Sequence record: MZ779063.1
Strand: one strand, 5' to 3'
Length of the DNA stretch: 64,000 bases
Origin: Staphylococcus phage vB_SauM-UFV_DC4
In this document: piece by piece, positions 236-46,631 of the stretch
How positions within the stretch are numbered: position 1 is the stretch's first letter
Layout of the letters: the number at the start of each line of letters is the position of its first letter
The notes under the pieces: generated by a model
What the model saw: the letters and a program-made list of their open reading frames with translations, nothing else
Databases searched by the model: none
Told to the model about the DNA's origin: nothing
Program-made: the position numbers and the translations under genes

Positions 236-1030
236 ATGGGTGTAATTAAAAGTGATAAAAAATATTTCTTATGTAAAATAAATGATGAATTATTTGAAGT
301 TGATAAAAATCATAGAGATTCATTTTTATATGACTATTTACCTTTAATAATAGCTGAAAAAATAATTAATTCGACTGAAAAAGATTCATATGAAACTAGA
401 GCAATGGATGTTTATTATAAAAAAGAAGATAATGTAATTGAAGGTAATTTAAAATTTTTAGCAAGATGTTTACTTCCTGTCCTGTATAATTTCAATAATA
501 AAAATTCATTTAAAACCGTTATGACTCTCGCAAATTTTAAATTTAAAAGGGATGCTAATAAATCTACTTTTAGTATAGATAAAAATAGTGTTAATGATAA
601 AATACTATTTCAAATGAGACCTTTAGGAAATGAAATTGATGATATTTTATTTAATAGTATTATAAGTGACCTTTTGAACGAAGATGACGAAATAGAAATG
701 AAACAAATGTTATTAGTTGGTAATTTTGAAAAATTATTAAACGAAATTGATAGTCAAAATATAAAACATCATGATGATTTTAAAATTTTAATCAAAGATA
801 TATTCAATATTTATCTTAATTTATTAAAATCCTTAAGACATCATCTTAATATTGAATTTTTCTTTTCTGAATCTTCTTTTCTAGACACGTTAAATGTTTA
901 TAATTTTGATATTATTAATAAAGATAGTTATAAAATAAATATTTTTGAAGATGATTTAGATGGAATATTTGAAGAAATTACCGATGAAAAATTTGTTAGA
1001 GAATATTTAGTGAAAAATAATTTTAAATAA
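236..1030 (+). CDS. Hypothetical protein, paralog family A
   Basis: ATG preceded by AAGGAG; internal region HLNIEFFFSESSFL and C-terminus EEITDEKFVREYLVKNNFK mirror the neighbouring ORFs. Confidence 0.6.
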   Translation: MGVIKSDKKYFLCKINDELFEVDKNHRDSFLYDYLPLIIAEKIINSTEKDSYETRAMDVYYKKEDNVIEGNLKFLARCLLPVLYNFNNKNSFKTVMTLANFKFKRDANKSTFSIDKNSVNDKILFQMRPLGNEIDDILFNSIISDLLNEDDEIEMKQMLLVGNFEKLLNEIDSQNIKHHDDFKILIKDIFNIYLNLLKSLRHHLNIEFFFSESSFLDTLNVYNFDIINKDSYKINIFEDDLDGIFEEITDEKFVREYLVKNNFK

Positions 1031-1043: not shown

Positions 1044-1880
1044 ATGAGTGATGTATATTATGAATATAAATTGAGAAATAAAATATTTAAGTTTAATGAT
1101 GAAATTGAAGATTTAAGCGATACCGGTATTAAGAACTTTATAACATATGAAAATAATATTTTAAGCAATTTATTGACAAATATATTAATTGATCATACTG
1201 TCTATGGTTTTATACCGAATATATCCTATGAAGAAAATAAAAATGATGGTGTTGATAAAGAATATGTAAAAAAGGTAAATTTAAGTATTTTAAAACATTT
1301 ACCCTTAGTATCATACAGTGTAGGTAATTCAAATATATTAAATGATTTTTCTTTAAATGTCAATTCTGTTGTTGATATTTATAAAAAAGGAAATTTCGAA
1401 GATGAAGAAGGCAATAAAATGATTATACCTAAAGAAAATTTTAAATTGGAGACAAATATAAATATTGATAATTTAGGTGGAAAAATCGATCATGAATTAT
1501 TTAATAAAATATGTGGAGATATTTTTGATCAAGACGAGAATTTTTTATTTTATAAAATGTATGATCATATATTAGAGGAAAATTCTATGTCACTATATGA
1601 GAATATAGGAAATATAAATAATAAATTGGTTTATGAAATTATACTCCGTTTAAATAATAATATTTTATCATTATTTGAAAAAATCAGAAGTCATTTAGAC
1701 GTGAGATTTTATTTAAGAGATAAAGACTTTTATCTTTTCAGTAATGGAGAAATAGACAAAGATTCATTAAGTGACGAATATATTGAAATATCTGAATTTT
1801 TAGGAAAATCATCTTTATTTAAAAAGATTACAGATGAGAAGATTATTAAAAATTATGAAATAAAAGAAAACTTCAAATAA
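1044..1880 (+). CDS. Hypothetical protein, paralog family A
   Basis: AAGGAG RBS; SHLDVRFYL... and C-terminal KITDEKIIKNYEIKENFK resemble ORFs 2..220 and 236..1030. Confidence 0.6.
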   Translation: MSDVYYEYKLRNKIFKFNDEIEDLSDTGIKNFITYENNILSNLLTNILIDHTVYGFIPNISYEENKNDGVDKEYVKKVNLSILKHLPLVSYSVGNSNILNDFSLNVNSVVDIYKKGNFEDEEGNKMIIPKENFKLETNINIDNLGGKIDHELFNKICGDIFDQDENFLFYKMYDHILEENSMSLYENIGNINNKLVYEIILRLNNNILSLFEKIRSHLDVRFYLRDKDFYLFSNGEIDKDSLSDEYIEISEFLGKSSLFKKITDEKIIKNYEIKENFK

Positions 1881-10398: not shown

Positions 10399-12312
10399 AT
10401 GACAAATGAAGAAATTGTTTTAGATTTAAAATTAGGTAAGTATAATGATTATTTACACTCAGATAATTATTTTGAAATTTTAGAAGATTTAAAGAAAGAT
10501 ATTATTAGTAATCCTCAAAAAAGAATGGAAGACTATTTTGAAGACAATATATCTAAAAGTAATTATTTCACTTTATTAGTATTAGGTAAACCTTTTAGAG
10601 ATATGAATAAAGAGTTTACGGAAGAATACTTAGTTAATCCAACTGATATTGAAGATTATTATGATTATTTTGACAAAGTTGTTGTTAATTTTATTCATGA
10701 AGGACATGACCCAATAAAAGTTAGTCAATCTATTGCATTTATTATTGATGAATTAACTATATTTTCAAATGAATATATTTTACCTTTAGATGGACCATCT
10801 ATTTCATTATACGATATTATGAGATTGGCTAATGAAGATAAAGAAGTAGAAAAATTAATTAACTTTGATAAAGAAGATATTGACCCTAGCTTAAACTATC
10901 AGCAAATTATCAATGAAGTTCAAAAACCTAATATGCATAAATTAATTGATCGTATTAAATCTGATAAAGAAAATGATTATAAAACTTTCTTACATTCAGG
11001 AACAGGTATTAATAAGATACAATTGAATGAGGTTTTAAGTTTCGTAGGATACAAACCAGATATTCGTGGCGATGTTGTAACTGATATTATTGATACCTCA
11101 TTCATGCGTGGTTTAAAAGATACAACACAATTTGCTATTGATGCAGAATCTTCATTAAACGCATTAATGAACTCTAAGAATAAAGTACGTGAATCAGGAT
11201 ACTTAAACCGTAAAATTACTTTATTAACTTCAGATTTAAAATTATCAGAAAATGAAGATTGTGAAAGTAAACATTTTGTTTACGTTAATATGAATAGTCA
11301 AGATAAATTAGATAGATTTAATGATAGATTCTATTATGATGATACAGATCAAGAATTAAAATTAATTAATTCTAAAGAAGATAGTCATTTAATAGGACAG
11401 ATTGTTCCATTACGTTCTCCTATCACATGTGCTGAATCTAAAGGAAAAATATGCCAAACTTGTTACGGTAAACGTTTATATAACATTAATAGAAACTTAT
11501 CTGTAGGTATATTGGCTACATTAAGATTAACAGAACCTATGACTCAAAAATTATTATCAACAAAACACTTACAAGCAGTACAATTATCTGAATTCTCTTG
11601 GCCAGATATCTTTAAAGAACACTTTGAATTCTCTGGAGATAATATTGTTCCACGTAATGAAAAGACTAAAGTTATTATTGATGAAATGATTATTAATGAA
11701 GATTATGAATATGGAAGATATAAAGCTAACAGTTTTAAATTTAAAGTAGGTACTAAAACTCATACTGTTAAATCACCTGTAACTCTTAAAATACCAGATC
11801 AAAATATTGAGACTATGGATAAGTTTTATGATGAAGAAGAAAATGCATTTATATTCAGTATGAAAGACTTAAAAGAGAATTTCTTATTTAATATTAAAAT
11901 TAAAAATGAAGGTGTTGCTGACCCACTTCTTAAAATACGTTCTATATTAGAAAGTACTAAATACATTAGAAATGATTATGAAGAAAATAACTATCAAGCA
12001 ATGTTTAATGATGTAACAGATTTATTACTTAAATCAGGTACAGACGTTATGAGTGTTCATTTAGAAACTATTATTAGAAACATGGTATTCTTAAATGAAG
12101 ATTATAAAGAAAGAACTAAATATAGAGATCCTGAATTTGAACCTGATATTGAATTGAAAAATGTAGGTAGTGCTATTTTAAGTTCACCTTCGCCAGTACA
12201 ATCATTAATCTTTGAGAAGATTAAAGCACAATTAAGTACTGATGAAACTAATAACTTCTTCAGTAAAGATGGAGACTCAATGTTCGATCCGTTATTTGAT
12301 TTTGATATTTAA
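10399..12312 (+). CDS. Multisubunit RNA polymerase beta-prime subunit, C-terminal module (bridge helix to trigger loop and beyond), fragment 1
   Basis: Bridge-helix-like FMRGLKDTT...SGYLNRKITLLTSDL (compare bacterial [23 protein letters not shown]). Trigger-loop region RSPITCAESKGKICQTCYGKRL...NLSVGILATLRLTEPMTQKLLSTKHLQAV (compare RSPLTCE..GVCAKCYGRDLA.G...[25 protein letters not shown]). Confidence 0.75.
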   Translation: MTNEEIVLDLKLGKYNDYLHSDNYFEILEDLKKDIISNPQKRMEDYFEDNISKSNYFTLLVLGKPFRDMNKEFTEEYLVNPTDIEDYYDYFDKVVVNFIHEGHDPIKVSQSIAFIIDELTIFSNEYILPLDGPSISLYDIMRLANEDKEVEKLINFDKEDIDPSLNYQQIINEVQKPNMHKLIDRIKSDKENDYKTFLHSGTGINKIQLNEVLSFVGYKPDIRGDVVTDIIDTSFMRGLKDTTQFAIDAESSLNALMNSKNKVRESGYLNRKITLLTSDLKLSENEDCESKHFVYVNMNSQDKLDRFNDRFYYDDTDQELKLINSKEDSHLIGQIVPLRSPITCAESKGKICQTCYGKRLYNINRNLSVGILATLRLTEPMTQKLLSTKHLQAVQLSEFSWPDIFKEHFEFSGDNIVPRNEKTKVIIDEMIINEDYEYGRYKANSFKFKVGTKTHTVKSPVTLKIPDQNIETMDKFYDEEENAFIFSMKDLKENFLFNIKIKNEGVADPLLKIRSILESTKYIRNDYEENNYQAMFNDVTDLLLKSGTDVMSVHLETIIRNMVFLNEDYKERTKYRDPEFEPDIELKNVGSAILSSPSPVQSLIFEKIKAQLSTDETNNFFSKDGDSMFDPLFDFDI

Positions 12313-19042: not shown

Positions 19043-20713
19043 TTATTCTGTAGCTTCTTCTTCTGGAGATTCTTCTACTTGTGAAGTAGAAATATTAATA
19101 TTAATATCTTTACTTATACTGTCAGAAATAACATTAACTTTAGCAGTTCCTGCAGCTTTAGCAGTCACGAGTCCATCGTTATTAACTGAAGCAAATTCAG
19201 AACCTTCAGTAATAGAATAACTTACAGGGTTTCCTTTAGGATCTGTAGTTACATTTAATTGTTGAGTTTCATTGTCTTTCATATCAATACTATCAGGAGT
19301 AACTGTTAGACTTTTAGTCTTTACTCTAGTTACATTAACATTAACTGTCTTACTAATAGAATCAGAACTTACTTTAACTTTAGCAGTTCCTACAGTTTTA
19401 GCAGTTACAAGACCACTATCATTAACTGAAGCAAATTCAGATCCTTCAGTAATAGAATAACTTACATTGTTTGTAGATGGTTGAATTTTAACGTCTAACT
19501 GTTGAGTTGATTCTGCATCTATGTTAACTTCTTCTGGAGTAACAGTTAGACTTTTAGTCTTTAAACGACTTACATTAACTTCTACATTTTTAGAAACATT
19601 GTCTGATTTAACTGTCACATTTGCAGTTCCTTCAGAAATACCAGTAATATTTCCTTTATTATCTAATGAAGCAAATTCAGAACCGTCTTTTAATTCAAAG
19701 CTTACTTTTCTTCCTTCAGGTTCAGTAGTAACTTCTAATTTTTGAGTTTCTTCTGCTTCAATATTAACTGTCTCTGGAGTAACAGTTAAGCTTTTAGTTT
19801 GATTGATACTTTCAAATTTTCCGTTTTTAGGATTATAAACGGAATATTCAATTTTTTTATCAATTTCGTTTTGTACTGTTTCTTCACTTAATATGCGAAT
19901 ATTGAAATTAACAATATTATCTTGAATACTTCTCTCATGTACTTTAACTAAGACTTCACCAGTTTTACTAAAGAATAATAAACGATTTTTATCTGATTGG
20001 TATCTAGCATAACTTTCATCACTAATATTTACAGATAATAATTGTAAAAGGTTTTCTTTAGCTACAGGAGTAACTTCTTTAGTATCGAAATCTTTATAAC
20101 CTAAGATTTTATCTAAAGGTAAAACAGATTCTTTAAGAACGTTAATATCTTGTTGTAATTGAACAAGACGTCCTGTAAATTTACCGTATTCTTTAACTTT
20201 AATAAAGATTGAATCTTTAACACGTTCAAAGATATTTTTATGTCCTTCAGAAATAGCAATATCATACTTTTCTGAAGCATCTTTAGGGAAGTATAATTTA
20301 AGTTCATATTCTTCATTAACTTCTAAATCAGAAGTAGGTAAACTTAAAATTTCAGATTTAACATCTTTAGCAGTATAAGTTTTAACTACAGACTTATCTG
20401 AAAGTTTGATTAAGTCAAATTTTAATAATCCCAATACATCACGAGCATCTACAGGATTAATATAGAAAGGTACATTAATAAACTTACCAGTTTCTCCTTC
20501 AGATTTGAAGTAAACTGTTCTTCTATCATATTTAATTTTACCAGTTTCAGGAAGAGGTTGAACATCAGTAACAGTCCAACCAGCTTGTTTTAAGCTAGCT
20601 AGATCATTACTAGAAAGAATAACGTTTTCACGAGGTCCACGTTCACCTAAACCTAAAAATGGAATTAATTTTTCATCTAATAATTTTACTTTAAAGTAGT
20701 TAGTAGTAGCCAT
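19043..20713 (-). CDS. Virion-associated protein with three tandem C-terminal bacterial Ig-like (Big_2-type) domains
   Basis: Three repeats of about 90 aa: KTKSLTVTPExVNIxAExTQQLxV...SYSITEGSEFASVNxxGLVTAKxxGTAKVxVxSDSISKxVNVNV. The N-terminal ~370 aa is unassigned. Confidence 0.6.
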   Translation of the reverse strand: MATTNYFKVKLLDEKLIPFLGLGERGPRENVILSSNDLASLKQAGWTVTDVQPLPETGKIKYDRRTVYFKSEGETGKFINVPFYINPVDARDVLGLLKFDLIKLSDKSVVKTYTAKDVKSEILSLPTSDLEVNEEYELKLYFPKDASEKYDIAISEGHKNIFERVKDSIFIKVKEYGKFTGRLVQLQQDINVLKESVLPLDKILGYKDFDTKEVTPVAKENLLQLLSVNISDESYARYQSDKNRLLFFSKTGEVLVKVHERSIQDNIVNFNIRILSEETVQNEIDKKIEYSVYNPKNGKFESINQTKSLTVTPETVNIEAEETQKLEVTTEPEGRKVSFELKDGSEFASLDNKGNITGISEGTANVTVKSDNVSKNVEVNVSRLKTKSLTVTPEEVNIDAESTQQLDVKIQPSTNNVSYSITEGSEFASVNDSGLVTAKTVGTAKVKVSSDSISKTVNVNVTRVKTKSLTVTPDSIDMKDNETQQLNVTTDPKGNPVSYSITEGSEFASVNNDGLVTAKAAGTAKVNVISDSISKDININISTSQVEESPEEEATE

Positions 20714-22158: not shown

Positions 22159-22254
22159 ATTTTATTCAAACCCTTTCGATAATTTTTATTTATTTCTTTA
22201 TATTTAGTTGTTCTTTTATAAAAATAATATGTTTCATAATAGTATAAAAATATA

Positions 22255-22290: not shown

Positions 22291-22323
22291 ATAAAATTAT
22301 AATTTAAATTATAGAATCATTTA

Positions 22324-29771: not shown

Positions 29772-30332
29772 TTAGTTTAATTTAAATTCCTCATCTAATA
29801 TTTTTTCTAAATTTTCAATAACTTTATCATCTTCATCAATTTCAGGTTTCTTATCAGGAGCTTTCTTGAAGATAGATACAAATTTATTTCCATTACTTTG
29901 AACCCATTTTTGTGCTTCTTTGAAACGATCTGCAACTATTCCAATAGGTATTCTTCGAATTTTATCTTTACCTTTATATTTAACAGGTACTTCTAAAGCA
30001 GCGTTTTTACCACCAGTACGTTTGGCCACTACTACAATATTGCTTGAATCAATTCTAATACCATTACTTTTAGCTTTTATTTTAAAATTCATACAAGCTT
30101 TAGCAAAATCCGCTTCAAGCGTATCAGGTTCAACAATTCCTTCTTGAACTGCAATATCCGAAGTATTACCGCAATCTTCACATACTAATTGACCTGATTC
30201 ATTTGGAGACATTTTAGAACCACATTCTTCACAAATAGGCTCTTCTTTATCAGTATCAATATCACGATTTAATTCTTCATTAACTAAACCAAATTCTTTA
30301 TCTAAAGATTCTTCTAAAGATTTAAAATCCAT
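29772..30332 (-). CDS. Zinc-ribbon protein, paralog of ORF 29221..29730 (N-terminus begins MDFKSLEESLDKEFGL)
   Basis: CEECGSKMSPNESGQLVCEDCGN has the same C-x2-C-x13-C-x2-C pattern as the 641-aa acidic protein. Confidence 0.55.
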   Translation of the reverse strand: MDFKSLEESLDKEFGLVNEELNRDIDTDKEEPICEECGSKMSPNESGQLVCEDCGNTSDIAVQEGIVEPDTLEADFAKACMNFKIKAKSNGIRIDSSNIVVVAKRTGGKNAALEVPVKYKGKDKIRRIPIGIVADRFKEAQKWVQSNGNKFVSIFKKAPDKKPEIDEDDKVIENLEKILDEEFKLN

Positions 30333-33400: not shown

Positions 33401-34682
33401 AATCATTAGAAGCAATATTGTTAATAGTCTCTTCATTGATATTATTAATATTTTCATTAATTTCTCTATCGATTAATTTATCTTCAGAAAAACTAAAATC
33501 TTCTAAATCATTAAGGTATTCATCTTGTTTCTTAGATAAAGCTAATATCTTTTTAGTATTTTTAAGAGCTTCATCACCAATGCTAGATTTATTTTTAATA
33601 TTTCTTTTAATTGATTTAAATGAATCATTCTTGTCTAATACATCTGAATATAAAGTTTCTGTATCAATGTCAATTAAATCTTTATTATCATTTAATTCTT
33701 TTTCAATTATCATAGCTATATTATATTCATCATCAACATCCATTTCAGTATTGTCTAATGATCTAATATAACTTATTGTAGAATCTATTTTATTAGATAT
33801 TTTTTCTAACTGTTCATCATTTTCATATTCAACTTCATCATTCTGAGCTTCGATAGGATCAATTGTTCCTACATTATCAAATGCTTTCTTTTTAATTACT
33901 CCATCTACAGCTTCAGTATTATCATCATCTTCAACTTTACTAATTTCATCAGTATCCAATGCTTGTGTATTAGTGTCAATGATTCTTCTTAATCTTTGTC
34001 TAAGTCTCATATTAAGTTTATTATAATCTTTGTAATCAAATTTAAACATTATTCCATTATCTAGAGAGACAAATAATAAATTAACATTTTGATTTTCACC
34101 ATGAGGTAATTCCTCTTGATTCTTAATCATCATGAATAAGCTTGACATGAAATCTTTTGTATTAGGTCTAATAGCTTGTTGAGAAGGTTTATTATACCCA
34201 TCAACATTAATCACATAAAGTAAATTATTGTAATCTTCTGTATTATTTAAAGAGTTAAAAGTTGATTTAATTGAATTTAATACTGTATTAAAGTTTTTAG
34301 TCATTAATGATTTATCTTCTAAATCAATAAATTTAGTTGAATCAACAATATAGTTTCTACCTTTAAATAATTTCTCATTTCTTTCAACTCTATACTGTTT
34401 ATAAGATTTAGATTTAATTTCTTTTTGATAATCTGTTATATTCGTTAATAATCTAGTTCTTCTATTTTGAGTTCTATACAATCTTGGTGTATAGATATTC
34501 TTGAAATTCTGATGATATAATAATCCACTATTTAAGAAATCAGTAAATGAATTTTCTTTAAAACCTTTATAAATAACTAACTGGTCTTTTTTCTTATCTT
34601 TGATTTCTTCATCAATAGCTTTAATTTTATATCCAGATATTGAATAGAATTTAAGATTTTTTAATCTATTAAGATATTTCAA
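30429..34682 (-). CDS. Multisubunit RNA polymerase beta subunit, large N-terminal/central fragment. It ends about 20 aa after the PSRM-region equivalent and lacks the C-terminal GGQRFGEME block
   Basis: Alignable blocks: [55 protein letters not shown] vs bacterial [90 protein letters not shown] vs [50 protein letters not shown] vs [71 protein letters not shown] vs [45 protein letters not shown]. Confidence 0.75.
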   Translation of the reverse strand: [1417 protein letters not shown]

Positions 34683-34909
34683 TTATGCCATTCCTTTCCG
34701 TATTTAATTTTATTGATTAATATATTTATATTACTTTTATTTTATAATATTATTCAATAAATTTCCTATATACAATAGTTTTGATTACTATCATTATGTA
34801 TTTTAATTGGATTTATAAAAATAAAATAACGAACTATGTGAGTTATTTTTAAATACATTTTTATGAAATAAAAATGTGTACTATCCCCTCATAATATTTT
34901 AATTTATAT

Positions 34910-34935
34910 AAATATACTATAAGAATAGTATATTT
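34910..34935. promoter_or_regulatory. Perfect palindrome AAATATACTAT-aaga-ATAGTATATTT in the divergent intergenic region between the RNAP beta (minus) and beta-prime fragment 2 (plus) genes
   Basis: 11-bp inverted repeat arms with a 4-nt spacer, read directly. Confidence 0.5.
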
Positions 34936-35142
34936 ATTATTATAATATTTTATTATAATATAATTATAATATTCCGGACACTTTCAAATTTTTTATCACA
35001 TAATGGTACAAATTTATAATTTTTTAAATAATTAATATAAAAATATTTATTAACTTCATGCATATTGTTTAATTATATAAAAATTATAAAATACTCAGTA
35101 ACATCTAAATATCAATAAAATAATGAAAGAAGTGAAAATAAA

Positions 35143-36369
35143 TTGGCTAATATGAATTATGAAAATAAAACACTTAATGAAAAAGAAGTATCGACATTAT
35201 TAAGTGTTGGTAAAGATGACATTACATTAGACAAGTTAAAAGAATTATTTGCTTTTAGACAAAATACAGAACCAATGTATAATCCAACGGATAAATTTAC
35301 ATTAAAGAAAGATTTAGTCTATAATAAAAAAGATGAAAAAACTACTGTAGGTAGATATATATTTAATAAATTTATTTTAGATAATAAAATTGGACCGATT
35401 ATAGGCTATATGAATCGTGATATGGGCGGTTCTGGAGTAGGTAAACTTCAATCTGATTTATCAAATTTATTACTTAATGATATTATTACTACACAAGAAA
35501 TGTCAAATTATATCGATAAATTACAATGGTTAGGTTTCTCTATAGCCAGTTTTATTAATTCTAGTCTAACTACTACAATGATGACTGCTACTGAAAAAGT
35601 TAAACAGAAAAAAGAAGAGTTATTAGTTAAATATGAAAAAGCATTGAATACTCCTGGAGAGGAATTAAATGCAATATCAGTTATTGAAAAAGAATTAATT
35701 AATTTAAGTAAAGAAGAATTAAAAGGATTGGCTGATTTAGATATTTATGATAGTGGCTCACGTGGTTCATTCGGTAATAACTATAAATTAACTGCATTAA
35801 TTCGTGGAGCAAATAAAAACTTTGCTGATCCAAGTAAAATTAGAATTGCTAAAAGCTCACTAGCTGAAGGAATTGATCCTAATGAACTTTATATGTTTGG
35901 AGATATTATGACTGCAGGTTCAGCTGGACGTGCACTAGGTACTCAAGAAGGAGGGTATCAGGCTAAGCAGCTGATGTCGGCTTTCCAAACGACTGTTTTA
36001 GATAAAAAAGGTTCTGACTGTAGAACAAATCATTTCCTTAAATTAATATTAGATAAATCAAACGCATCATTAATGATGTATAGATATTTTAAAGATAATA
36101 ACGCAAGATCAGGTCAATTAGTTTTATTAACTCCTGAAAATGTAGATGATTACATGGGTAGAGTTTTAGAATTTAGAAGTCCTATGTATTGTGCAAGTGA
36201 AGATATTTGTAGTAAATGTGCAGGAGAATTACCATATAAATTAGGAATTGAAAATATTGGTCTATTAGTTAACCAAGTTGCTCAAGCAATCGTAACAAGT
36301 TCAATGAAATCTTTCCATGATATGACGATTAAACAAAATGAAATAGATATAGAAAGTTATATAGAATAA
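35143..36369 (+). CDS. Multisubunit RNA polymerase beta-prime C-terminal module, fragment 2 (paralog of 10399..12312); the ORF ends about 18 aa after the trigger-loop first helix
   Basis: Bridge-helix-like GDIMTAGSAGRALGTQEGGYQAKQLMSAFQ; trigger-loop region FRSPMYCASEDICSKCAGELPYKLGIENIGLLVNQVAQAIVTSSMKSFHD. Confidence 0.7.
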   Translation: MANMNYENKTLNEKEVSTLLSVGKDDITLDKLKELFAFRQNTEPMYNPTDKFTLKKDLVYNKKDEKTTVGRYIFNKFILDNKIGPIIGYMNRDMGGSGVGKLQSDLSNLLLNDIITTQEMSNYIDKLQWLGFSIASFINSSLTTTMMTATEKVKQKKEELLVKYEKALNTPGEELNAISVIEKELINLSKEELKGLADLDIYDSGSRGSFGNNYKLTALIRGANKNFADPSKIRIAKSSLAEGIDPNELYMFGDIMTAGSAGRALGTQEGGYQAKQLMSAFQTTVLDKKGSDCRTNHFLKLILDKSNASLMMYRYFKDNNARSGQLVLLTPENVDDYMGRVLEFRSPMYCASEDICSKCAGELPYKLGIENIGLLVNQVAQAIVTSSMKSFHDMTIKQNEIDIESYIE

Positions 36370-36437
36370 CATAGATAGGATAACAATCATTAAATTGATT
36401 GTTATCCTTATTTTATTGGATTAAATCATTCTTTAAA

Positions 36438-36470
36438 TTTATATTATAATTATGAGGTGAATGATGTGTA
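36438..36470 (+). promoter_or_regulatory. Promoter-like motif TTTATATTATAATTATGAGGTGAATG
   Basis: TATATTATA family copy upstream of the endonuclease gene 36508. Confidence 0.4.
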
Positions 36471-36507
36471 TTAATGTGATATACTTATAATTATAAAAAT
36501 AAATTTA

Positions 36508-38601
36508 ATGGAGATGAAATGGATAATGTTAGGTAAAGAAATAATGAGAAGATCTGAAATAATTTACGATGATACAGATATAAAAACTGTTTTAAATTTA
36601 GATCCGGATAAAGATTACATAAATGAAGAAGAGGATATCGAATATATCTGTCCTAAACATGGTAAACAAAAAAGAAAAATAAAACAACATTTAGAAAAGA
36701 AAGGTTGTTTCGAGTGTCAATACGATAATAAGTCTAAAAAGACTAAAGGTAAAGATTTATTAGAAGAGTTTTACAAAAGATTTGGAGAAGATGTTTTTGA
36801 TTATCCAGATATAGAAGAAGATCGTGTATATTCATCTAGAGAAGAAATAAAGATAGTTTGTTTTAAACATGGAGAATTCACTAGACAAATTAGAGAACAT
36901 AATACAAAAGCTAAAATATGTGATAAATGTAAATTAGAGGATGGAGGAAAAGATTTTAAAAAGAAACAATTTGAAGAAAGATTGAGAAATGAAAATTATG
37001 AAATGTATAAGATTACCGATTTTTCTGAGACTGTATTTGAAGGGTTAACTAATTTTATGTATGTTAGATGTAAAAAACATGATACGATTAACAAAATACA
37101 ACCTAGATCATTACTAAGTAAGAATAGTAATGGGTGTTCAAAATGTAGAAGTGAAAAACTATTAAAAAGTAGAAGATCTAATAACAAGGTATATAACGTG
37201 GAAGATATTTTTAACATATATAAACAAAAAGGAAATCTTTTAAATACTGCGACTAAATATCTTGAAAATTTAAATCTCGAACAAAGAAAAGAGTTATTCT
37301 TAATGATATCCAAACATAATTTTGGAAATAAGTATGACTATTCTTTAATAGAAAAAGAAAAAAATAATTTTAAATCTAGAGATAAAGTAACACTAATATG
37401 TAAAGAACATAATGTCGAATTTAAACAAAATATATCACACCACTATAAAGGTAGGTTAGGTTGTGATAAATGTAAAAAGGATAATGTGTCTAAAAGTATA
37501 TCTGACTCATACAGATTTTCTAAAAGAACAGATATAAAACCTGAAGAATTAATAAAAGAAGTAGATAATGAAAATTTCAAAGATAATGAGATAAGAAAAA
37601 TAGTGAGATTAATGAATTTTGAAGATAAAGGAAAATATTACAGATTATTAGGGAAAAAGATTAAGGGAGATAAATATAACTATGATAAATTAGTGTATAA
37701 CGGTGATAGTGTTCAGGTAACTATAACATGTAAAAAACATGGAGATTTTAAACAGGTAATATACGATCACTTTTTCCAAGATCATAATTGTAATAAATGT
37801 TCAAAGATCGTATCCAAACAAGAACTTAAATTAAGTAATGATTTGGAAAAATATTTTACAGTTAAAAATTCTTTAAGAAGAATATTTGAGGATAAAAGAA
37901 AAGAAATTGATATATTTATCAAAGATATTAATTTAGGTATAGAGATAAATGGTCTAAGATGGCATTCAAATGATATAAAAAAGGAGGATGAAAATAATTT
38001 TGCAAGATACCATCAATTTAGTAAAATGAATGAATCTGAATGTTTAGGTATAAAATTATTAAACTTCTATGACGATGAAATAAATATAAAGAAAAATGAA
38101 ATTTCTTATTCTAAAATAATGAAAGAAATTTTATTATTTAATAATTCCTTTAATATTAAAAATATAGATTTAAAAGATTTAGAGATGAAAAAGATATCTT
38201 ATAATTTCATAAAGAAATTTTATAAGAAACATTCACTAGAATTCTTTAATGAAGAAGATAAAAATTATAGAGGAATATTCTATAAAGGTTATATAGTTTC
38301 CGTATTCTCATTTAATAATAAGAACGAATGTCATAACTATAGCACGAATTACAATTTAAATGAAGATATTGATTTAATATTAGATGCTTACCCTAATACC
38401 ATTTTTAATCTTAGATCAGATTCTTATAATAGATATAAATTTCAAGATTATGGGTTCATTACAATAAATAAAACTCTACCGCAATATAGAAATTTCAATA
38501 AAAAAGGTTTAACTAAAAATAGATATAAAAGATTAGAAAAGAGAGATAATAATAATCCTAATAGAATTTATGATTGTGGTAGAACTATCATGATTTACTA
38601 A
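36508..38601 (+). CDS. Putative homing-type endonuclease: five tandem KHG zinc-ribbon repeats, a Vsr/DUF559-like PD-(D/E)xK nuclease core and a conserved C-terminal domain (paralog 1 of 3)
   Basis: Repeats CxKHGxFxxxIxxHxxxxxxCxxC x5; nuclease core IEINGLRWHSNDIKKEDENNFARYHQFSKMNESECLGIKLLNFYDDEI; C-terminus ...NRIYDCGRTIMIY shared with ORFs 38912 and 40962. Confidence 0.6.
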   Translation: MEMKWIMLGKEIMRRSEIIYDDTDIKTVLNLDPDKDYINEEEDIEYICPKHGKQKRKIKQHLEKKGCFECQYDNKSKKTKGKDLLEEFYKRFGEDVFDYPDIEEDRVYSSREEIKIVCFKHGEFTRQIREHNTKAKICDKCKLEDGGKDFKKKQFEERLRNENYEMYKITDFSETVFEGLTNFMYVRCKKHDTINKIQPRSLLSKNSNGCSKCRSEKLLKSRRSNNKVYNVEDIFNIYKQKGNLLNTATKYLENLNLEQRKELFLMISKHNFGNKYDYSLIEKEKNNFKSRDKVTLICKEHNVEFKQNISHHYKGRLGCDKCKKDNVSKSISDSYRFSKRTDIKPEELIKEVDNENFKDNEIRKIVRLMNFEDKGKYYRLLGKKIKGDKYNYDKLVYNGDSVQVTITCKKHGDFKQVIYDHFFQDHNCNKCSKIVSKQELKLSNDLEKYFTVKNSLRRIFEDKRKEIDIFIKDINLGIEINGLRWHSNDIKKEDENNFARYHQFSKMNESECLGIKLLNFYDDEINIKKNEISYSKIMKEILLFNNSFNIKNIDLKDLEMKKISYNFIKKFYKKHSLEFFNEEDKNYRGIFYKGYIVSVFSFNNKNECHNYSTNYNLNEDIDLILDAYPNTIFNLRSDSYNRYKFQDYGFITINKTLPQYRNFNKKGLTKNRYKRLEKRDNNNPNRIYDCGRTIMIY

Positions 38602-38608
38602 TATAATA

Positions 38609-38650
38609 CAGTGACATTAATTTGTCACTGTATTATAATTATTTTTTTTT
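38609..38650 (+). terminator. Hairpin ACAGTGACA-TTAATT-TGTCACTGT followed by a T10 run
   Basis: Immediately after the 36508..38601 stop. Confidence 0.6.
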
Positions 38651-38858
38651 ATTTAGGATTTATAAATAACTATTTTAATATAGTAATAGATATATTTCTA
38701 TTTACTATATTCGTAAATTCTTTTTCTTACTCAATCTCGTAATTTGTTTTGCGTCAAGCAGGTTACATGGGCCTCCTACCCGTATAATATTGTACTACAC
38801 CTAAGTGGATCATAGAAAATGGTCCACTTTATTTATCGTTTTCAATTAATTTTTAAAA

Positions 38859-38885
38859 TTATATTATAAATATGAATATTTAAGT
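38859..38885 (+). promoter_or_regulatory. Promoter-like motif TTATATTATAAATATGAATATT
   Basis: TATATTATA family copy upstream of ORF 38912. Confidence 0.4.
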
Positions 38886-38911
38886 TATTATAAATTAATT
38901 GAGGTGATAAA

Positions 38912-40363
38912 ATGTTGGGTAAAAAATTATTAACTGTTTTTGGAGAGATCTATGATGAAGGATTATTCACATATCCTAACTTAGATTTAAATAAAAATTA
39001 TACAACTAAAGAATATATAGATATAAAATGTTATAAACATGGAATTTTCTCTAGAACTATAAATTCTCATAAAAAGAAAAGAAAATGCAGAAAATGTTCT
39101 AATGAAGAAAATAAATGGGATAACAATAAATATCTATCTGAATTATTTAAGAAAAATAAAGAATTTAAAGATTTATATAAATATGATAAGTTAAATTATC
39201 AAGGCTATCATAAAAAAATAAAAATATATTGCAATAAGCATGGATATTTTGAACAGATAGCAAATAACCATTTAAATGGAATGGGATGTAATGAATGCAG
39301 TATAGATAAACATAGAAATAAAAAATCAAATAAGAAAAAATATACTGTAGATGAATTATTAAATGATGAGAACTTGAATACTCAACAAAAATCAAATATT
39401 GTTAGATGTCATTTTAATAATAAAGATAAAAATGAGTACTATATAAAAAAATCTAAGATGGTTCATGGTAATAAATATATTTACGATAAGTTCAATTACA
39501 TTAATAAAAAGAATAAAGTAAAAATATATTGCCATAAGCATGGATATTTTGAACAAAGAATAGAAGAACATATTAATAAGAAAATGGGTTGTCCTTCTTG
39601 TGGAATGATTGTTTCTAAAAATGAAGAAATGTTAAATAATGATTTAAAGCATTTTAATTTCAATATTATTAGAAATGATAGAAAGATTTTAGATAAAAAA
39701 GAAATCGATATACTTATTCCAGAAGAGAAAATTGCAATAGAAATTAATGGTAATTATTGGCATTCAAATTTGGTTATGGATGAATTAAAAGCTAAAAGAC
39801 ATTTATATAAAAAATTTAAAATGTCTAAGGTTAAAGATTATCATTTAATAAATTTTTATGAAGATGACTTCATTTATAAATATAATTTAATTTTAAAAGA
39901 AATATTTTTACTAACAGATAAACTAAAATTATATAATTTTAAAAAAGATTATTTAAAGATTGAATCTTTAGATAATCAAAAATTTATAGATTTTTATAAT
40001 AATAATTCTTTATATAATATTAATAATAATTATAGATCAGCTTATGCTATAAAATATAAAGAATTTATAATAGGTGCATTTTCTTTAAATGAAGATAATG
40101 TATGTTATAATTATTGTATTAATTATAATAATAATGAAGATTTAAGTTTAATTAAAGAATTATTTCCTAATATAGTATTTAAAGTAAAGATTGACTCTTT
40201 TAATAGTTATAAATTTTTAAATAATGAATTACTAATTATAAATTATGAAAGTCCTAAATTTTATAATTTTCAATTAACTGGAAAAGACAGATTAAAAAGA
40301 AAAATTATAAATAATAGTGATAACAGAATATATGATTGTGGAAGTTATAGTTTTATATTTTAA
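38912..40363 (+). CDS. Putative homing-type endonuclease, paralog 2 of 3 (three KHG zinc-ribbon repeats plus a Vsr/DUF559-like core)
   Basis: CYKHGIFSRTINSHKKKRKCRKCS, CNKHGYFEQIANNHLNGMGCNECS, CHKHGYFEQRIEEHINKKMGCPSCG; nuclease core IAIEINGNYWHSNLVMDELKAKRHLYKK; C-terminus NRIYDCGSYSFIF. Confidence 0.6.
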   Translation: MLGKKLLTVFGEIYDEGLFTYPNLDLNKNYTTKEYIDIKCYKHGIFSRTINSHKKKRKCRKCSNEENKWDNNKYLSELFKKNKEFKDLYKYDKLNYQGYHKKIKIYCNKHGYFEQIANNHLNGMGCNECSIDKHRNKKSNKKKYTVDELLNDENLNTQQKSNIVRCHFNNKDKNEYYIKKSKMVHGNKYIYDKFNYINKKNKVKIYCHKHGYFEQRIEEHINKKMGCPSCGMIVSKNEEMLNNDLKHFNFNIIRNDRKILDKKEIDILIPEEKIAIEINGNYWHSNLVMDELKAKRHLYKKFKMSKVKDYHLINFYEDDFIYKYNLILKEIFLLTDKLKLYNFKKDYLKIESLDNQKFIDFYNNNSLYNINNNYRSAYAIKYKEFIIGAFSLNEDNVCYNYCINYNNNEDLSLIKELFPNIVFKVKIDSFNSYKFLNNELLIINYESPKFYNFQLTGKDRLKRKIINNSDNRIYDCGSYSFIF

Positions 40364-40364
40364 A

Positions 40365-40395
40365 TAGAAGGATAGTATCCTTCTATTTTTTTTTT
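40365..40395 (+). terminator. Hairpin AGAAGGATA-gt-ATCCTTCT followed by a T10 run
   Basis: Directly after the 38912..40363 stop. Confidence 0.6.
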
Positions 40396-40403
40396 ATTTA
40401 TTA

Positions 40404-40474
40404 TGTTCTTGTTGCTACTGGTTAAAGCATATCGAGTAAATCGGTATTTTGTGAGTTCGACTCTCACCAAGAAC
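40404..40474 (+). tRNA. tRNA-like element (71 nt cloverleaf, anticodon region ambiguous, possibly TAA)
   Basis: 7-bp acceptor stem GTTCTTG/CAAGAAC, D arm GCT-ACTGGTTAA-AGC, anticodon arm TATCG-AGTAAAT-CGGTA, 4-nt variable loop, canonical T arm GTGAG-TTCGACT-CTCAC, discriminator A; no encoded CCA. Confidence 0.45.
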
Positions 40475-40846
40475 ACGCCAATAGGATTAATCATCCTTAC
40501 ACTAAGGCTGCAGACTTAGTGTGAATAAAATACAGTATGAGCTATATGCCACTCTTATACTGTTAGATTCAACTAATGCTAAGGCATATCATTAGTTGTA
40601 AAAATTTAAAACTTATATCTAATTTACGTTTAGTTATTAGATTGTATTTTTGTTAAAGAGGACTTATTTTACTTAATTGTAATAAGTATCTGACTTTAAC
40701 TTAATTGGTTTTCTAGTTTTGACCCTAACAATAAAAAACTAGACTATTAAATATTTTATTTCTTTTTAGCTCACAACTTAAAAGAAAAAACTAGGTGGAT
40801 CATTTTATGCTTTTTTGATCGGCTAAAAACTAATAAAGCACCCTTA

Positions 40847-40880
40847 CCCTAACCTCATTAATTTGAAGGTTAGGGTTATT
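40847..40880 (+). terminator. Hairpin CCCTAACCTC-ATTAATTTG-AAGGTTAGGG followed by a T-rich run; member of the CCCTAACC family
   Basis: Ends the structured noncoding region 40380..40880, just before the promoter motif at 40897. Confidence 0.5.
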
Positions 40881-40896
40881 TTATACATAGTTTTAA

Positions 40897-40925
40897 ATAT
40901 ATATTATAAAAATGAGATATAATTG
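40897..40925 (+). promoter_or_regulatory. Promoter-like motif ATATATATTATAAAAATGAGATAT
   Basis: TATATTATA family copy upstream of ORF 40962. Confidence 0.4.
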
Positions 40926-40961
40926 TCTCAAATACTTTTATAATATGGAGATGAAAAAGAT

Positions 40962-42914
40962 ATGATAGGTTCAAAGATTAGAAAATCATTAAATGAAAAA
41001 TTTGGTTATCATTATAAGTTTTTATTAGAAGATTTTAAGAAAGATTATGATTTAAATAATGATACAATTATGGTAACTAAAGAAGCTAGTGACATCACAA
41101 AAGAATATAAAATAAAATCATTAAAGTATACTAAAGACATTGAAAAATTAGACAAAGACTTTAAGAAAGAGGAAGAAGAATTAAATATTAGAAAATCTAG
41201 AATTTTTAATTTAGATGAATTAGGTTTAGATGAAGACCTTAGAAACATCTGTAAGTATATAGACAGCACTACTAAATTAAAAGTAAAAGTTAGAGAGTAT
41301 AAAAAAGAAAGTAAAGAAAATATTGAATTCTTTTACAAAAATTTTGCTAATTTTACTTATAATAGTGTAATATATGATATGAGTCATTTTAAACCATCAA
41401 CAATTAGATCTAATCAGAAAGTTATATGTAGAAAACATGGACCTTTCTTTACTACTCCAGTAGATTTCTTTATAAAGAAAAAAGGTTGTCCAGTTTGTGA
41501 AAAAGAAACAGATGAAGAAAAGAAAGACACTAGTTGGAAGGATGAATTCATAGAAAATAATAATAAAAAAATATATCAAGAAGTAAAAGAAGAGAAAGAA
41601 AAAGAAAATAAAAAAGCTAAAAAAGAAAAGGTAGATATAAATAAGGAAAATAAAAAACTTTTAGATGAAGTCTTAAATCCACCTGAATTAGGATATTATA
41701 GAGAACCAGATAAAATACCTAATTCCAAAAAAGAAAATGAGAGATTCTTAAAGAATATTAAAGAAATAGATAATAATAAAGTTGAAGAATCTAAAGAAGT
41801 TGAAAAACCAAAGGAAATTGTTAAACCTAAATTAAATAAAAAGACAGTTGATCAAATAATAGCAGATAATAATACTAATCTGAGTAGAAAGATTAAATAT
41901 ATAAATAAAAATATTTATACAGAAAATGAAAGACAAGATTTCTATAAAAAATTAACTGACCGCAAACATGGTAAAAATAAATATAAAATTGATGAATTTA
42001 GACCTAAGACAATTAAAGAAAAACAAGAAGTAATTTGTCTTAAGCATGGACCTTTTAAAATAACAGCTGAAGAATTATTAATTAAAGGTAACCAGTGTCC
42101 TAAATGTTCTTCTAATAGAACTTCCATAACAGAAACTTTTGTAAGAGAATATATTCAGAGTTTAGATTTTGAAGTTAATAATTACGAGATAGAAGATTTA
42201 ATCAAACCTTATGGTGTTGATATAATTATCGAAAATTTAAAATTAGCTATTGAAGTTCAAGGTATCAAATATCATTCATCTGAAACAAGATCAGAAGCTT
42301 CAAATAAATACCATCAATTAAGAAAATTAAAAATGCTAGAAAATAAAGGTTATCATTTATTGAATATATATGATGATGAAATTCCTAATAAAAATAAAGG
42401 AATTGGTTGGGATAAATTTGGTAGATTTTTATCTGAATTAATGATGTTTGATAAAAGATTTGATATTGAAGAAATGGATACGAATTCAATAAAAATAGAT
42501 ACAATTAGTTATTACAAATTCAGAGAATTCTTTGAAAATTCTAGACAAGAATTTGTTACTGGAGATACAGAATATAAAGGAGTGGTTTATAAGAATAAAT
42601 TAATTTCAGTATTTTCTTATAATAAAGAAACAAGAGAATGTCATAACTACCATACTATGACAAATAATAAATTTGATTTAGAATTAATTTACAGAAAATA
42701 CAAAGATTTAAAATTTATAGTTAAAAGAGATTCTTATGTAGCGTATAAAATGAAAGGGCATGATATGTTACCGATAGCAGAAACAGAACCTGGTTTCTGT
42801 AACTTTTCAAAGATTGATGGAGATAGAAAAAATAACTATATAAGACAAAAAAGAAAGAATGAAAATGATAAAAACAAAGTTTATGACTGCGGAAATATAA
42901 TTTTTGTATTTTAA
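40962..42914 (+). CDS. Putative homing-type endonuclease, paralog 3 of 3 (two KHG zinc-ribbon repeats separated by a Lys/Glu-rich spacer, Vsr/DUF559-like core, conserved C-terminus)
   Basis: CRKHGPFFTTPVDFFIKKKGCPVCE, CLKHGPFKITAEELLIKGNQCPKCS; nuclease core LAIEVQGIKYHSSETRSEASNKYHQLRKLKMLENKGYHLLNIYDDEI; C-terminus NKVYDCGNIIFVF. Confidence 0.6.
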   Translation: MIGSKIRKSLNEKFGYHYKFLLEDFKKDYDLNNDTIMVTKEASDITKEYKIKSLKYTKDIEKLDKDFKKEEEELNIRKSRIFNLDELGLDEDLRNICKYIDSTTKLKVKVREYKKESKENIEFFYKNFANFTYNSVIYDMSHFKPSTIRSNQKVICRKHGPFFTTPVDFFIKKKGCPVCEKETDEEKKDTSWKDEFIENNNKKIYQEVKEEKEKENKKAKKEKVDINKENKKLLDEVLNPPELGYYREPDKIPNSKKENERFLKNIKEIDNNKVEESKEVEKPKEIVKPKLNKKTVDQIIADNNTNLSRKIKYINKNIYTENERQDFYKKLTDRKHGKNKYKIDEFRPKTIKEKQEVICLKHGPFKITAEELLIKGNQCPKCSSNRTSITETFVREYIQSLDFEVNNYEIEDLIKPYGVDIIIENLKLAIEVQGIKYHSSETRSEASNKYHQLRKLKMLENKGYHLLNIYDDEIPNKNKGIGWDKFGRFLSELMMFDKRFDIEEMDTNSIKIDTISYYKFREFFENSRQEFVTGDTEYKGVVYKNKLISVFSYNKETRECHNYHTMTNNKFDLELIYRKYKDLKFIVKRDSYVAYKMKGHDMLPIAETEPGFCNFSKIDGDRKNNYIRQKRKNENDKNKVYDCGNIIFVF

Positions 42915-42920
42915 ATAATA

Positions 42921-42960
42921 ACCCTAACCTTAAATTAATAAGGTTAGGGTATTTTATATT
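42921..42960. terminator. Bidirectional hairpin ACCCTAACCTT-AAATTAATA-AGGTTAGGGT with flanking T-run; CCCTAACC family
   Basis: Between convergent genes 40962..42914(+) and 42968..43651(-). Confidence 0.6.
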
Positions 42961-42967
42961 ATTTTTT

Positions 42968-43651
42968 TTATTGAATTATCTTATTTGGTTTAACTTCACT
43001 TTTCATTTTGATTTCAGTTTTAACTTTGTCAAGAACTTCTGATTCATATAAAGAAGGATCTTCCTCATATTTTTTAGTCATCTTCTTAACAGCTGCTAAT
43101 TTATTTTCCAATGGTGCTTCTAATTCTACTTGATTAAATAATCCTTCAAAATTACCGAAAACAAATTCTTCATTTAATGGAATAAACAGATCTCCATTGT
43201 GTGCTAATTCATGAGCAGTATAAGATAGAGGTACAATTCCTATATTACCTTCAAAATGCATTTTAATAACATCTTCTGCTACAGTAAAACTCTCATGAGA
43301 CTTTTTATACTCATAATTAGTTTTAAGTTTTTCTCTATAGCTAGATACTATATCATATAGAGACAATGGGTAGTGGTGCATTTCTATAGTTAATCGCTTA
43401 TCATCATTTATATCAACTTCTGGTATAAACTTACATTTAGTAAGATCCATTTCAGTTTTCAAAGCTTTAATAAATGATTTGTATTCATATGAGCTTCTAA
43501 CTATTTTTTCAATATATTTATTAAATGTCTCTTCAGACTTTATATCATCTTCATTATTATACATTTCAAATTTCTTTGTTTCATCTACATTTAATTCTAT
43601 TGTTTCGATTAATTTTGGAAGGTCTTTTTTATCTACTTTTGGCATTTGCAT
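42968..43651 (-). CDS. Hypothetical protein
   Basis: ORF; contains HHYPLS...HELAHNGD, a possible metal-binding motif (weak). Confidence 0.45.
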   Translation of the reverse strand: MQMPKVDKKDLPKLIETIELNVDETKKFEMYNNEDDIKSEETFNKYIEKIVRSSYEYKSFIKALKTEMDLTKCKFIPEVDINDDKRLTIEMHHYPLSLYDIVSSYREKLKTNYEYKKSHESFTVAEDVIKMHFEGNIGIVPLSYTAHELAHNGDLFIPLNEEFVFGNFEGLFNQVELEAPLENKLAAVKKMTKKYEEDPSLYESEVLDKVKTEIKMKSEVKPNKIIQ

Positions 43652-43750
43652 AGATTTAATACCTTCTTTCTAATTTTCTTTTATCTATATTAGTATAATT
43701 AAATGTTATGAATATTTTTTAGTCTTTATGCGTTTCATGTAAATTTTTAA

Positions 43751-43775
43751 ATATATATTATAAAAGTGAAGTACT
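43751..43775 (+). promoter_or_regulatory. Promoter-like motif ATATATATTATAAAAGTGAAGTAC
   Basis: TATATTATA family copy upstream of ORF 43826. Confidence 0.4.
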
Positions 43776-43825
43776 AATTAGCTAATAGTATTTCATAAAA
43801 ATTACACTAGGAGAGTGAATCGGAT

Positions 43826-45990: not shown

Positions 45991-46004
45991 TATAAATTTT
46001 AGGG

Positions 46005-46631
46005 ATGTGTATGAGATTGATAGACTTTAAAAAAATGCTTAAAGAGAATACTAGGAACATAGAAATTTATTGCGATGGAGCAATTAAAGGTGTTAGATCA
46101 AAAGGAACTAAATATGGAGGTATTGGTATTATTCCCGTACAAGAAGATCTATTTGATTATATATCTATACCTTACATAGGAAAAGATCTAACCAATAATA
46201 AATTAGAGATGTTGGCTGTACTATTTACTATATTATTCTCATTAGAGGTCTCTCAAGAGTATAAAGGTAAAACAAATATTAATATAAAGTCCGATAGTGA
46301 ATATACGGTTAATGGTTATAATAAAAATTTAGATAAATGGATAAATCAAGGTTGGAAAAACTATTCAGGTGCTGACGTTAAGAATAAAGAATTATGGCAG
46401 TTAATTGAAAGAGTTAAATATTATTTAAATAGAAACAGAAATAAGTATTATGTAAATTTACAATGGACTAAAGGACATGATAATGAAAAATATAACGAAT
46501 TAGCAGACGAATATGCTGTTAAAGCTAAAATGGAAGCATATGAAGACAATGACAGTGCTTTTTCTATAGAATATGCTATTGATAAAGCTAATAAATTTAT
46601 AACTAAATTAGAAAAGAAAGAGGTATTGTAA
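46005..46631 (+). CDS. rnh: Ribonuclease H (RNase HI family)
   Basis: Catalytic-motif layout IYCDGA (Asp), NNKLEMLAV (Glu), IKSDSEYTV (Asp), WTKGHDNEKYNELADEYA (His/Asp). Confidence 0.7.
   Translation: MCMRLIDFKKMLKENTRNIEIYCDGAIKGVRSKGTKYGGIGIIPVQEDLFDYISIPYIGKDLTNNKLEMLAVLFTILFSLEVSQEYKGKTNINIKSDSEYTVNGYNKNLDKWINQGWKNYSGADVKNKELWQLIERVKYYLNRNRNKYYVNLQWTKGHDNEKYNELADEYAVKAKMEAYEDNDSAFSIEYAIDKANKFITKLEKKEVL

Follow-up and report, generated by a model that had tools for sequence, protein, structure and literature searches.

The stretch of DNA analyzed here (the window) comprises 64,000 nucleotides (nt) of the genome of Staphylococcus phage vB_SauM-UFV_DC4 (DC4; sequence record MZ779063.1). 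It has about 25% G+C and is 98-99.8% identical to S6 and PALS_2, which are AR9-like jumbo phages of Staphylococcus with uracil-DNA. The locus of interest starts on the plus strand with UFVDC4_00068 (35143..36369), which encodes the middle part of the beta' subunit (beta'-mid) of the virion RNA polymerase (RNAP). Downstream of it lie three endonuclease genes, E1, E2 and E3, and, between E2 and E3, a tRNA-like element and a structured noncoding stretch. In the gene table of the DC4 paper (PMC10638138), three genes (62429-66682, 67143-68369 and 70912-72363), a tRNA-Phe (52143-52236) and a pseudo-tRNA-Leu (72405-72475) are each offset by exactly 32000 from their positions in the window, which therefore spans DC4 positions 32001-96000; E2 and beta'-mid show 100% identity to proteins of UFV_DC4. 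A first-pass annotation, made from the sequence alone, had proposed that an intron or another form of splicing truncates beta' at this point or, alternatively, that the subunit is naturally split and followed by a nest of selfish endonucleases. Each feature that this annotation described was confirmed at its position. The locus was compared in ten phages, namely: DC4, S6, PALS_2, Madawaska, MarsHill, SA1, Machias, PB50, LY01 and AH12.

The beta'-mid gene was identified as the ortholog of AR9 gp264 by its match to phrog_2962, by tblastn, and by alignment of its bridge helix (residues 258-288) to bacterial beta'. It encodes 408 amino acids (aa), ends in SSMKSFHDMTIKQNEIDIESYIE and matches positions 545-868 of TIGR02386. 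Its C-terminal QVAQAIVTSSMKSFH presumably corresponds to bacterial QSIGEPGTQLTMRTFH in trigger-loop helix 1, and we take its MKSFH to be the equivalent of MRTFH in E. coli; both equations are made at the level of motifs only. The SFHD motif occupies residues 390-393, so that the first-pass annotation had placed the end of the open reading frame (ORF) correctly, but 15 residues remain beyond the motif, instead of about 18.

Several lines of evidence show that this end is shared by the whole family. The match to phrog_2962 (E 1.5e-75) aligns residues 40-407 of the protein with positions 69-432 of the 433 in the profile. In tblastn searches, beta'-mid can be aligned up to residue 408 with AR9, PBS1, BpSp and phiR1-37, and the alignments reach residue 407 or 408 in phages of Bacillus, Listeria, Yersinia, Fusobacterium, Burkholderia and Xanthomonas. 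AR9 gp264 is 46% identical and has the same ends. Among the homologues in the database, the best 120 have lengths of 393-418 aa, except for a few first exons of 271-276 aa from intron-bearing copies. Furthermore, unrelated genes lie directly 3' of the beta'-mid homologue in three other phage contigs. Because the match extends to the end of the profile, the homologues share the C-terminus and their lengths fall within 393-418 aa, the split is a natural one: beta'-mid stands alone as a complete gene, its end falls in trigger-loop helix 1, and this end inside the trigger loop is the natural one throughout the family.

In AR9, the beta' subunit of the virion enzyme consists of three polypeptides, gp145, gp264 and gp125 (PMC5312081, PMC5105663, PMC7598289). 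Three-piece beta' subunits are likewise found in SPN3US (gp241, gp42 and gp244) and phiKZ (gp180, gp80 and gp176), and the split is conserved across this group. Nothing essential differs between DC4 and these systems, and the DC4 copy is without the introns that are seen in some of its sister phages. In phiKZ/AR9-type jumbo phages, virion beta' is built from three separate proteins for the N-terminus, the middle and the C-terminus, without splicing, and the break between the middle and C-terminal proteins falls at the tip of the trigger loop. Based on PMC5105663 and PMC5312081, AR9 gp125 is taken to be the C-terminal part of beta'. Its ortholog, which lies outside the window, is encoded by one gene of 248 aa in 9 of 9 Staphylococcus relatives. 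In the near-identical phage S6, it occupies 21665-22408, about 90 kb from the beta'-mid gene, and in Madawaska it is annotated as 'viral RNA polymerase beta-prime subunit'. In these relatives, and presumably in DC4, the rest of beta' thus has an ordinary gene of its own elsewhere. Two ORFs of the window, 236..1030 and 1044..1880, were considered as candidates for the C-terminal part on the basis of partial synteny with AR9 and were rejected. The beta' fragment at 10399..12312 is part of the non-virion RNAP, i.e. of another enzyme, and beta'-mid is not a second fragment of that same subunit, as the first-pass annotation had it. Of the virion polymerase, the proteome paper on DC4 lists just the beta subunit, UFVDC4_00067, as present in virions. 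For a jumbo-phage virion polymerase, a beta' gene with its end in the trigger loop is here the normal architecture and no sign of splicing.

Searches for introns at the locus gave the same picture. No group I or group II core was detected at E<=10 by a covariance scan with lax filters of the three intergenic segments 36300-36560, 38580-38930 and 40350-40970; the Rfam intron models, Intron_gpI included, have no match at E<=10 in 34600-43800, and none at the gathering threshold in the whole window. No beta'-like sequence was found in the downstream frames. The hairpin loops of the noncoding stretch were also considered as the P, Q, R and S elements of a group I intron, and this was rejected, as the covariance model gives no match and the stretch is a row of independent hairpins. 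As a positive control, a focused scan of Machias detected two tandem group I introns (Intron_gpI at L005 3864-4044, 24.5 bits, E 2.8e-4, and at L005 4051-4213, 27.2 bits, E 4.5e-5), both of which carry typical group I elements (AATTGC...AATCAGCATC, GTTCAACGACTAAATA and AAGATATAGTC). It should be noted that a larger intron scan had missed the introns of the relatives.

The introns of the relatives interrupt the codons of the bridge helix, contain no ORF and are about 165-180 nt long each. Machias, LY01 and AH12 carry the two of them, PB50 carries the second one alone, and DC4, S6, PALS_2, Madawaska, MarsHill and SA1 carry neither. In DC4, the two corresponding sites are empty and 16 nt apart (35940..35957, plus strand; GGT-ACTCAAGAAGGAGGGT-ATC, with the hyphens at the sites), the first between 35940 and 35941 (G266/T267) and the second between 35956 and 35957 (G271-Y272). 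Compared with the ORF-less group I introns in the RNAP genes of AR9-like phages, DC4 thus represents the uninterrupted 'homing site' allele at both positions. The view that introns target the catalytic segments of polymerase genes therefore holds for the bridge helix of this gene in other phages: introns do target beta'-mid, but neither at its end nor in DC4. The neighbouring gene for the C-terminal part of the virion RNAP beta subunit (30429-34682, minus strand) is a single uninterrupted ORF of 1417 aa in DC4; it is annotated with one intron in Madawaska and MarsHill and with three in Machias.

The region downstream of beta'-mid is organized into transcription units. An early promoter, TATATTAT-N6-G, precedes each endonuclease ORF (at 36440, 38860 and 40900), and the 8 sites with this motif in the window all lie just upstream of ORF starts. 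The motif is the early promoter that has been published for AR9, where the virion polymerase uses it (AAATATATATTAT-N6-G; PMC5312081), and for MarsHill (bioRxiv 10.1101/2020.12.14.422802). A terminator hairpin follows each endonuclease ORF (38602-38637, 40362-40388 and 42921-42950), and the region contains 7 terminator-like sites compared to 0.7 expected. The noncoding segment directly after beta'-mid, 36370..36507, is indeed rich in hairpins (fold z = -5.3 vs. shuffles) and contains an intrinsic terminator (36377-36408), followed by the early promoter 36440-36454. This terminator and promoter, together with the E1 ORF (36508..38601; likely start at 36526, giving 691 aa, and predicted transcription start at G36454), make up the E1 cassette (36370..38604). 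The E2 cassette (38844..40400) contains the promoter 38860-38874, the E2 gene (38912..40363, UFVDC4_00070) and the terminator 40362-40388, and the E3 cassette (40886..42950) a promoter of perfect consensus (40900-40914), the E3 gene (40962..42914) and a bidirectional terminator (42921-42950), all on the plus strand. The last of these is a near-copy of the hairpin at 40843-40875, and the pair brackets E3. The hairpin on the two sides of E3 has the form ACCCTAACCT...AGGTTAGGGT; its 5' arm, CCCTAAC, recurs in the loop 40721-40732 of an upstream hairpin, which makes alternative pairings possible, and this loop copy is not conserved in Madawaska and SA1.

E1, E2 and E3 are 30-36% identical among themselves and, with a promoter motif and a terminator hairpin at each, are the three paralogous units that the first-pass annotation had described. 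As single sequences, they match Vsr, DUF559 and treble-clef zinc fingers weakly. The homing-endonuclease families of PHROG match them with E-values of 1e-17 to 1e-33, and a profile built from E1-E3 and 17 homologues matches the catalytic domain of I-Bth0305I (3R3P) with E 1.6e-6. The invariant residues S235, D266, E277, G280, H284 and K301 are retained in all three, and E238 is conserved along with D266, E277 and H284 (E2 numbering). Each protein consists of 2-4 treble-clef zinc-finger repeats (DUF723/DUF4379), a Vsr-like core, and a trimmed C-terminal domain of the GNAT/Mom type. Phage enzymes of the Hef type have been placed in the EDxHD family (PMC3239194). Based on the profile match to 3R3P, the invariant core residues, the PHROG matches and this placement, E1-E3 are, by sequence, divergent Hef-like homing endonucleases of the EDxHD family (Vsr fold) whose catalytic-core residues are intact. 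An assignment to the F-CphI type of 'collaborative homing' enzymes was rejected, as F-CphI belongs to the Endo VII family (PMC6083498).

E1-E3 share the catalytic core with I-Bth0305I, including the Asp and His equivalent to its D196 and H213, and all of these enzymes are phage-borne. The gene for I-Bth0305I lies within a group I intron, and the enzyme binds DNA through NUMOD/helix-turn-helix modules, whereas E1-E3 are free-standing and have zinc-finger repeats. Unlike I-Bth0305I, they also carry the trimmed GNAT/Mom-like domain and have His, not Asp, at the fifth (last acidic) position of the EDxHD motif; their cleavage activity is a prediction. In most Hef-like relatives, the C-terminal domain resembles GNAT acetyltransferases and the Mom family (PF25680; match to PDB 2BSW), and in E1-E3 it is shortened and without the GGASKL-type segment. 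In some relatives, the same zinc-finger repeats are joined to GIY-YIG or T5orf172 nuclease domains. Another nuclease gene of the window (49562-50293, minus strand) is annotated in DC4 and Madawaska as 'endonuclease fused to N-terminal Zn finger domain', and BLAST reveals no similarity between its product and E1-E3.

Comparison of the ten phages reveals whole-cassette differences with sharp boundaries at three positions, which we refer to as slots A, B and C. Slot A is the position immediately behind the stop codon of beta'-mid. Nothing is inserted there in Madawaska, MarsHill, SA1, Machias and PB50, and the original terminator adjoins the stop codon. In DC4, S6 and PALS_2, the slot holds the E1 cassette (99% identity between E1 and S6_1020), inserted exactly between the stop codon and that terminator. 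With the cassette, beta'-mid has acquired a new terminator, while its former one (38602..38637 in DC4) now ends the E1 transcript. In LY01, the slot is occupied by a gene that is 41% identical, and in AH12 by an unannotated, intact ORF of 415 aa (L136 1949-3196). The AH12 protein shares the Vsr-like core (EIDIIL...AIECNGAYWHSE) and has different N-terminal DNA-binding repeats (KYGVDNPMKN).

Slot B is empty in LY01 and MarsHill and contains a 73-nt tRNA-Asn(GTT) gene in S6, PALS_2 and Madawaska; in Machias and PB50, tRNA-Asn lies just upstream of the tRNA-like element. Only in DC4 is this slot filled by the 1557-nt E2 cassette (38844-40400). All alleles of slot B are flanked by short TTTAT(T) repeats. 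Searches of the phage collection and of 5.8 billion proteins yielded no relative of E2 with more than 36% identity. Slot C, which holds E3, is filled in all ten phages. Its proteins are 94% identical to E3 in S6/Madawaska, 52% in SA1 and 36% in the Machias group, compared to 98%, 92% and 85%, respectively, for beta'-mid. AR9 shares the order of beta'-mid, early promoter and Hef-like endonuclease (gp264-gp265). It has a single endonuclease, which is at most 31% identical to E1-E3 and over the core only, and its locus has neither the tRNA-like element nor the structured RNA.

The tRNA-like element at 40405-40475 (plus strand) scores 35.6 bits with Rfam RF00005, above the gathering score of 29, in agreement with the first-pass annotation, and is called a pseudo-tRNA-Leu in the DC4 paper (PMC10638138). 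ARAGORN makes no tRNA call at this position. The element folds into a cloverleaf with covarying acceptor and T stems, and its acceptor, D and T arms are kept among the phages. The anticodon loop, AGUAAAU, is non-canonical, having G33 in place of U33. In the orthologous elements, the loop reads AACAAAU or UUGAAUA, or the arm is extended by 15-31 nt, so that it varies in both sequence and length. The long-arm elements of Machias (L005 5186-5288), PB50 (L007 3963-4065) and AH12 (L136 3711-3795), of which those of Machias and PB50 have the 31-nt extension, are still scored as tRNA by Rfam (52-55 bits). Since the anticodon arm differs from phage to phage, the element is not a decoding tRNA. Machias and PB50 have, behind an early promoter, yet another (third) tRNA-like gene, whose 'anticodon' comprises 2 bases. 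The sole ARAGORN tRNA call in the window is a 94-nt tRNA-Phe with anticodon AAA at 20143-20236 (minus strand), given in the DC4 paper as the single tRNA of the phage (PMC10638138); it is located inside the ORF 19043..20713 and is doubtful as a real tRNA gene.

The tRNA-like element is followed by a core of four hairpins (40476..40603) and by variable hairpin modules (40604..40885), which are present or absent depending on the phage and end in the terminator-like hairpin 40843-40875 (ACCCTAACCT...AGGTTAGGGT and a T-run). The noncoding stretch of about 400 nt noted in the first-pass annotation is thus confirmed as structured, with a fold z of -5.9 vs. shuffles for 40405-40885 and with covariation in nine phages. 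The core hairpins have the invariant loops AGGAUUAAUCAUCCU, GCUGCAGA, UAUGCCA and UAAGGCAUAU, and their stems vary by compensatory substitutions. In the nine-phage alignment, RNAalifold finds compensatory changes in 22 of 56 pairs, and 97.6% of the cells are paired in the proposed structure. Double changes affect 23 pairs, compared to 10.8+/-2.0 in shuffles (0 of 500 shuffles reached this number) and at most 4 in slid controls. The loops UAUGCCA and UAAGGCAUAU are complementary over 6 nt and can in principle kiss; as this complementarity is the same in all sequences, the alignment speaks neither for nor against it. Two palindromes, AUUAAU and CUGCAG, occur in the loops.

Apart from tRNA, no Rfam family fits 40405-40885, and a distant blastn search of the phage collection recovered the RNA in the nine relatives from Staphylococcus and nowhere else. 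When IMG/VR was scanned for exact patterns of the invariant loops, the results were empty for one pattern and gave three chance matches inside coding regions for another, and one further pattern was too loose and returned noise only. The region is unannotated in all relatives. We conclude that it is not an intron but an RNA gene, which is conserved and composed of a tRNA-like module that does not decode, followed by hairpins. Most likely, tRNA-processing enzymes generate the ends of its product, a small and stable RNA. To date, the ten AR9-like jumbo phages of Staphylococcus are its only known carriers. It always lies between homing-endonuclease cassettes, a setting comparable to the tRNA cluster of T4 with SegB and its small stable RNAs (PMC2988022, PMC13096335). 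With its tRNA-like handle, four invariant-loop hairpins and variable modules, this RNA has roughly even chances of being a new class of phage structured RNA. It could act as a tRNA-mimic decoy against host defences that target tRNA; alternatively, the invariant palindromic DNA could be a conserved target that anchors the endonuclease nest. It is the sole element here that is absent from the published annotation, and the sole one that may prove to be a new kind of thing.

Taken together, a complete beta'-mid gene, a homing-endonuclease hotspot downstream of it and a conserved RNA gene, with no intron, make up the best explanation of the locus as a whole, and we hold it with considerable confidence. 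The alternative offered in the first-pass annotation, in which the subunit is naturally split and selfish endonucleases have nested behind it, is supported by the presence and absence of cassettes with clean boundaries in the ten phages. This pattern is the signature of gain, replacement and loss of free-standing homing endonucleases, and their mobility is suggested by the cassette-exact insertions and deletions, the three different genes in slot A, the divergent proteins in slot C and the Hef-like gene of AR9. We infer that the endonucleases would be made early by the injected virion polymerase and that, in a mixed infection, one of them would cut a related genome without the cassette at or near the 3' end of beta'-mid or in the tRNA region. 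Recombinational repair would then copy the cassette in, as with the seg and mob genes of T4. The T4 seg and mob genes, including that of SegB, are also intergenic cassettes with their own promoters, situated between conserved genes and present or absent among relatives, and the T4 free-standing endonucleases likewise adjoin tRNA genes and small stable RNAs (PMC2988022, PMC13096335). The T4 nucleases are of the GIY-YIG and HNH types, whereas those of DC4 belong to another family and form three tandem paralogues.

Several points weigh against this explanation. Cleavage and homing by E1-E3 are putative, and a sliding comparison of identity with Madawaska and S6 shows no clear co-conversion gradient near the cassettes. 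No close relative of E2, and hence no candidate donor, was found. E3 is present in every relative, and its mobility is deduced only from its fast divergence and the repeated hairpin that flanks it. Finally, no promoter was identified for the structured RNA.

Other explanations were weighed against the same observations. The headline proposal of the first-pass annotation was that a group I or group II intron, or trans-splicing, interrupts beta' after trigger-loop helix 1 and carries the endonucleases, with the rest of beta' as a downstream exon. It accounts for an ORF that ends within a catalytic element and for the hairpin-rich RNA behind it, and group I introns are present in the RNAP genes of related phages, beta'-mid included. 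This proposal fails by criteria that the first-pass annotation itself had set, and we consider it exceedingly improbable: the C-terminus of beta'-mid is conserved throughout the family, the C-terminal piece has a gene of its own, which in S6 is about 90 kb distant, nothing beta'-like occurs in any downstream frame, and all intergenic segments are without an intron core in scans with a matched positive control. Furthermore, the downstream genes are each equipped with a promoter and a terminator, and in relatives a terminator or unrelated genes lie directly 3' of beta'-mid.

For the noncoding stretch, covarying stems and invariant loops across phages that are about 70% identical indicate selection and not decay, and the four core hairpins have no tRNA score. 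These observations speak against the view that 40405-40885 is no RNA gene in itself but what is left of a cluster of tRNA genes, or a leader or attenuator that acts in cis on E3, as might be supposed from the pseudo-tRNA at its start, the one or two further tRNA or tRNA-like genes found here in relatives and the terminator at its end, just before the E3 promoter. As E3 has its own promoter past that terminator, the region is not an E3 leader, and we regard decay or a leader function as unlikely. About as doubtful, in our estimate, is the notion that at least E3, like AR9 gp265, is no longer selfish and is retained for a benefit to the phage, such as the exclusion of co-infecting relatives, degradation of host DNA, or segmental amplification of the neighbouring tRNA and RNA genes, which has been shown for SegB of the T4 type. 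The proteins in slot C are only 36-52% identical in phages whose neighbouring genes are 85-92% identical, which resembles turnover and not purifying selection, and the duplicated hairpin around E3 has the look of an insertion footprint. On the other side stand the occupation of slot C in ten of ten phages, with a gene at the same position in AR9, the intact catalytic residues of E3, the perfect consensus of its early promoter, and its proximity to tRNA and tRNA-like genes, as in the case of SegB (PMC13096335). Domestication and homing are not mutually exclusive.

Neither the three-piece split of beta' nor the presence of Hef-like genes is new to biology, and the papers on DC4 and MarsHill annotate them in part. 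What is new is the slot-by-slot reconstruction, the orphan E2 in place of a tRNA gene, and the tandem intron sites that stand empty. In a small space, the locus provides a natural record of homing-endonuclease turnover, with three slots within 6.5 kb in ten sequenced phages, alleles that are empty, tRNA-filled or endonuclease-filled, and two empty intron sites 400 bp upstream. It is thus a convenient system in which to probe, in a phage with uracil-DNA, what the little-studied Hef-like/EDxHD enzymes target and how they are inherited.

Two further observations were made in the window. Next to the virion beta subunit gene, a 186-aa ORF with a TFIIB-like zinc ribbon (29772-30332, minus strand) is 468 nt shorter than its 342-aa orthologues S6_0990 and Madawaska gp158, and it is therefore either the product of an in-frame deletion or a truncated gene in DC4. 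In addition, identity to S6 and Madawaska falls to 72-88% in 46000-46600, inside the RNase H gene (46005..46631), compared to more than 97% in the flanks. This patch suggests a short mosaic, i.e. a recombination tract that would have come from a divergent phage.

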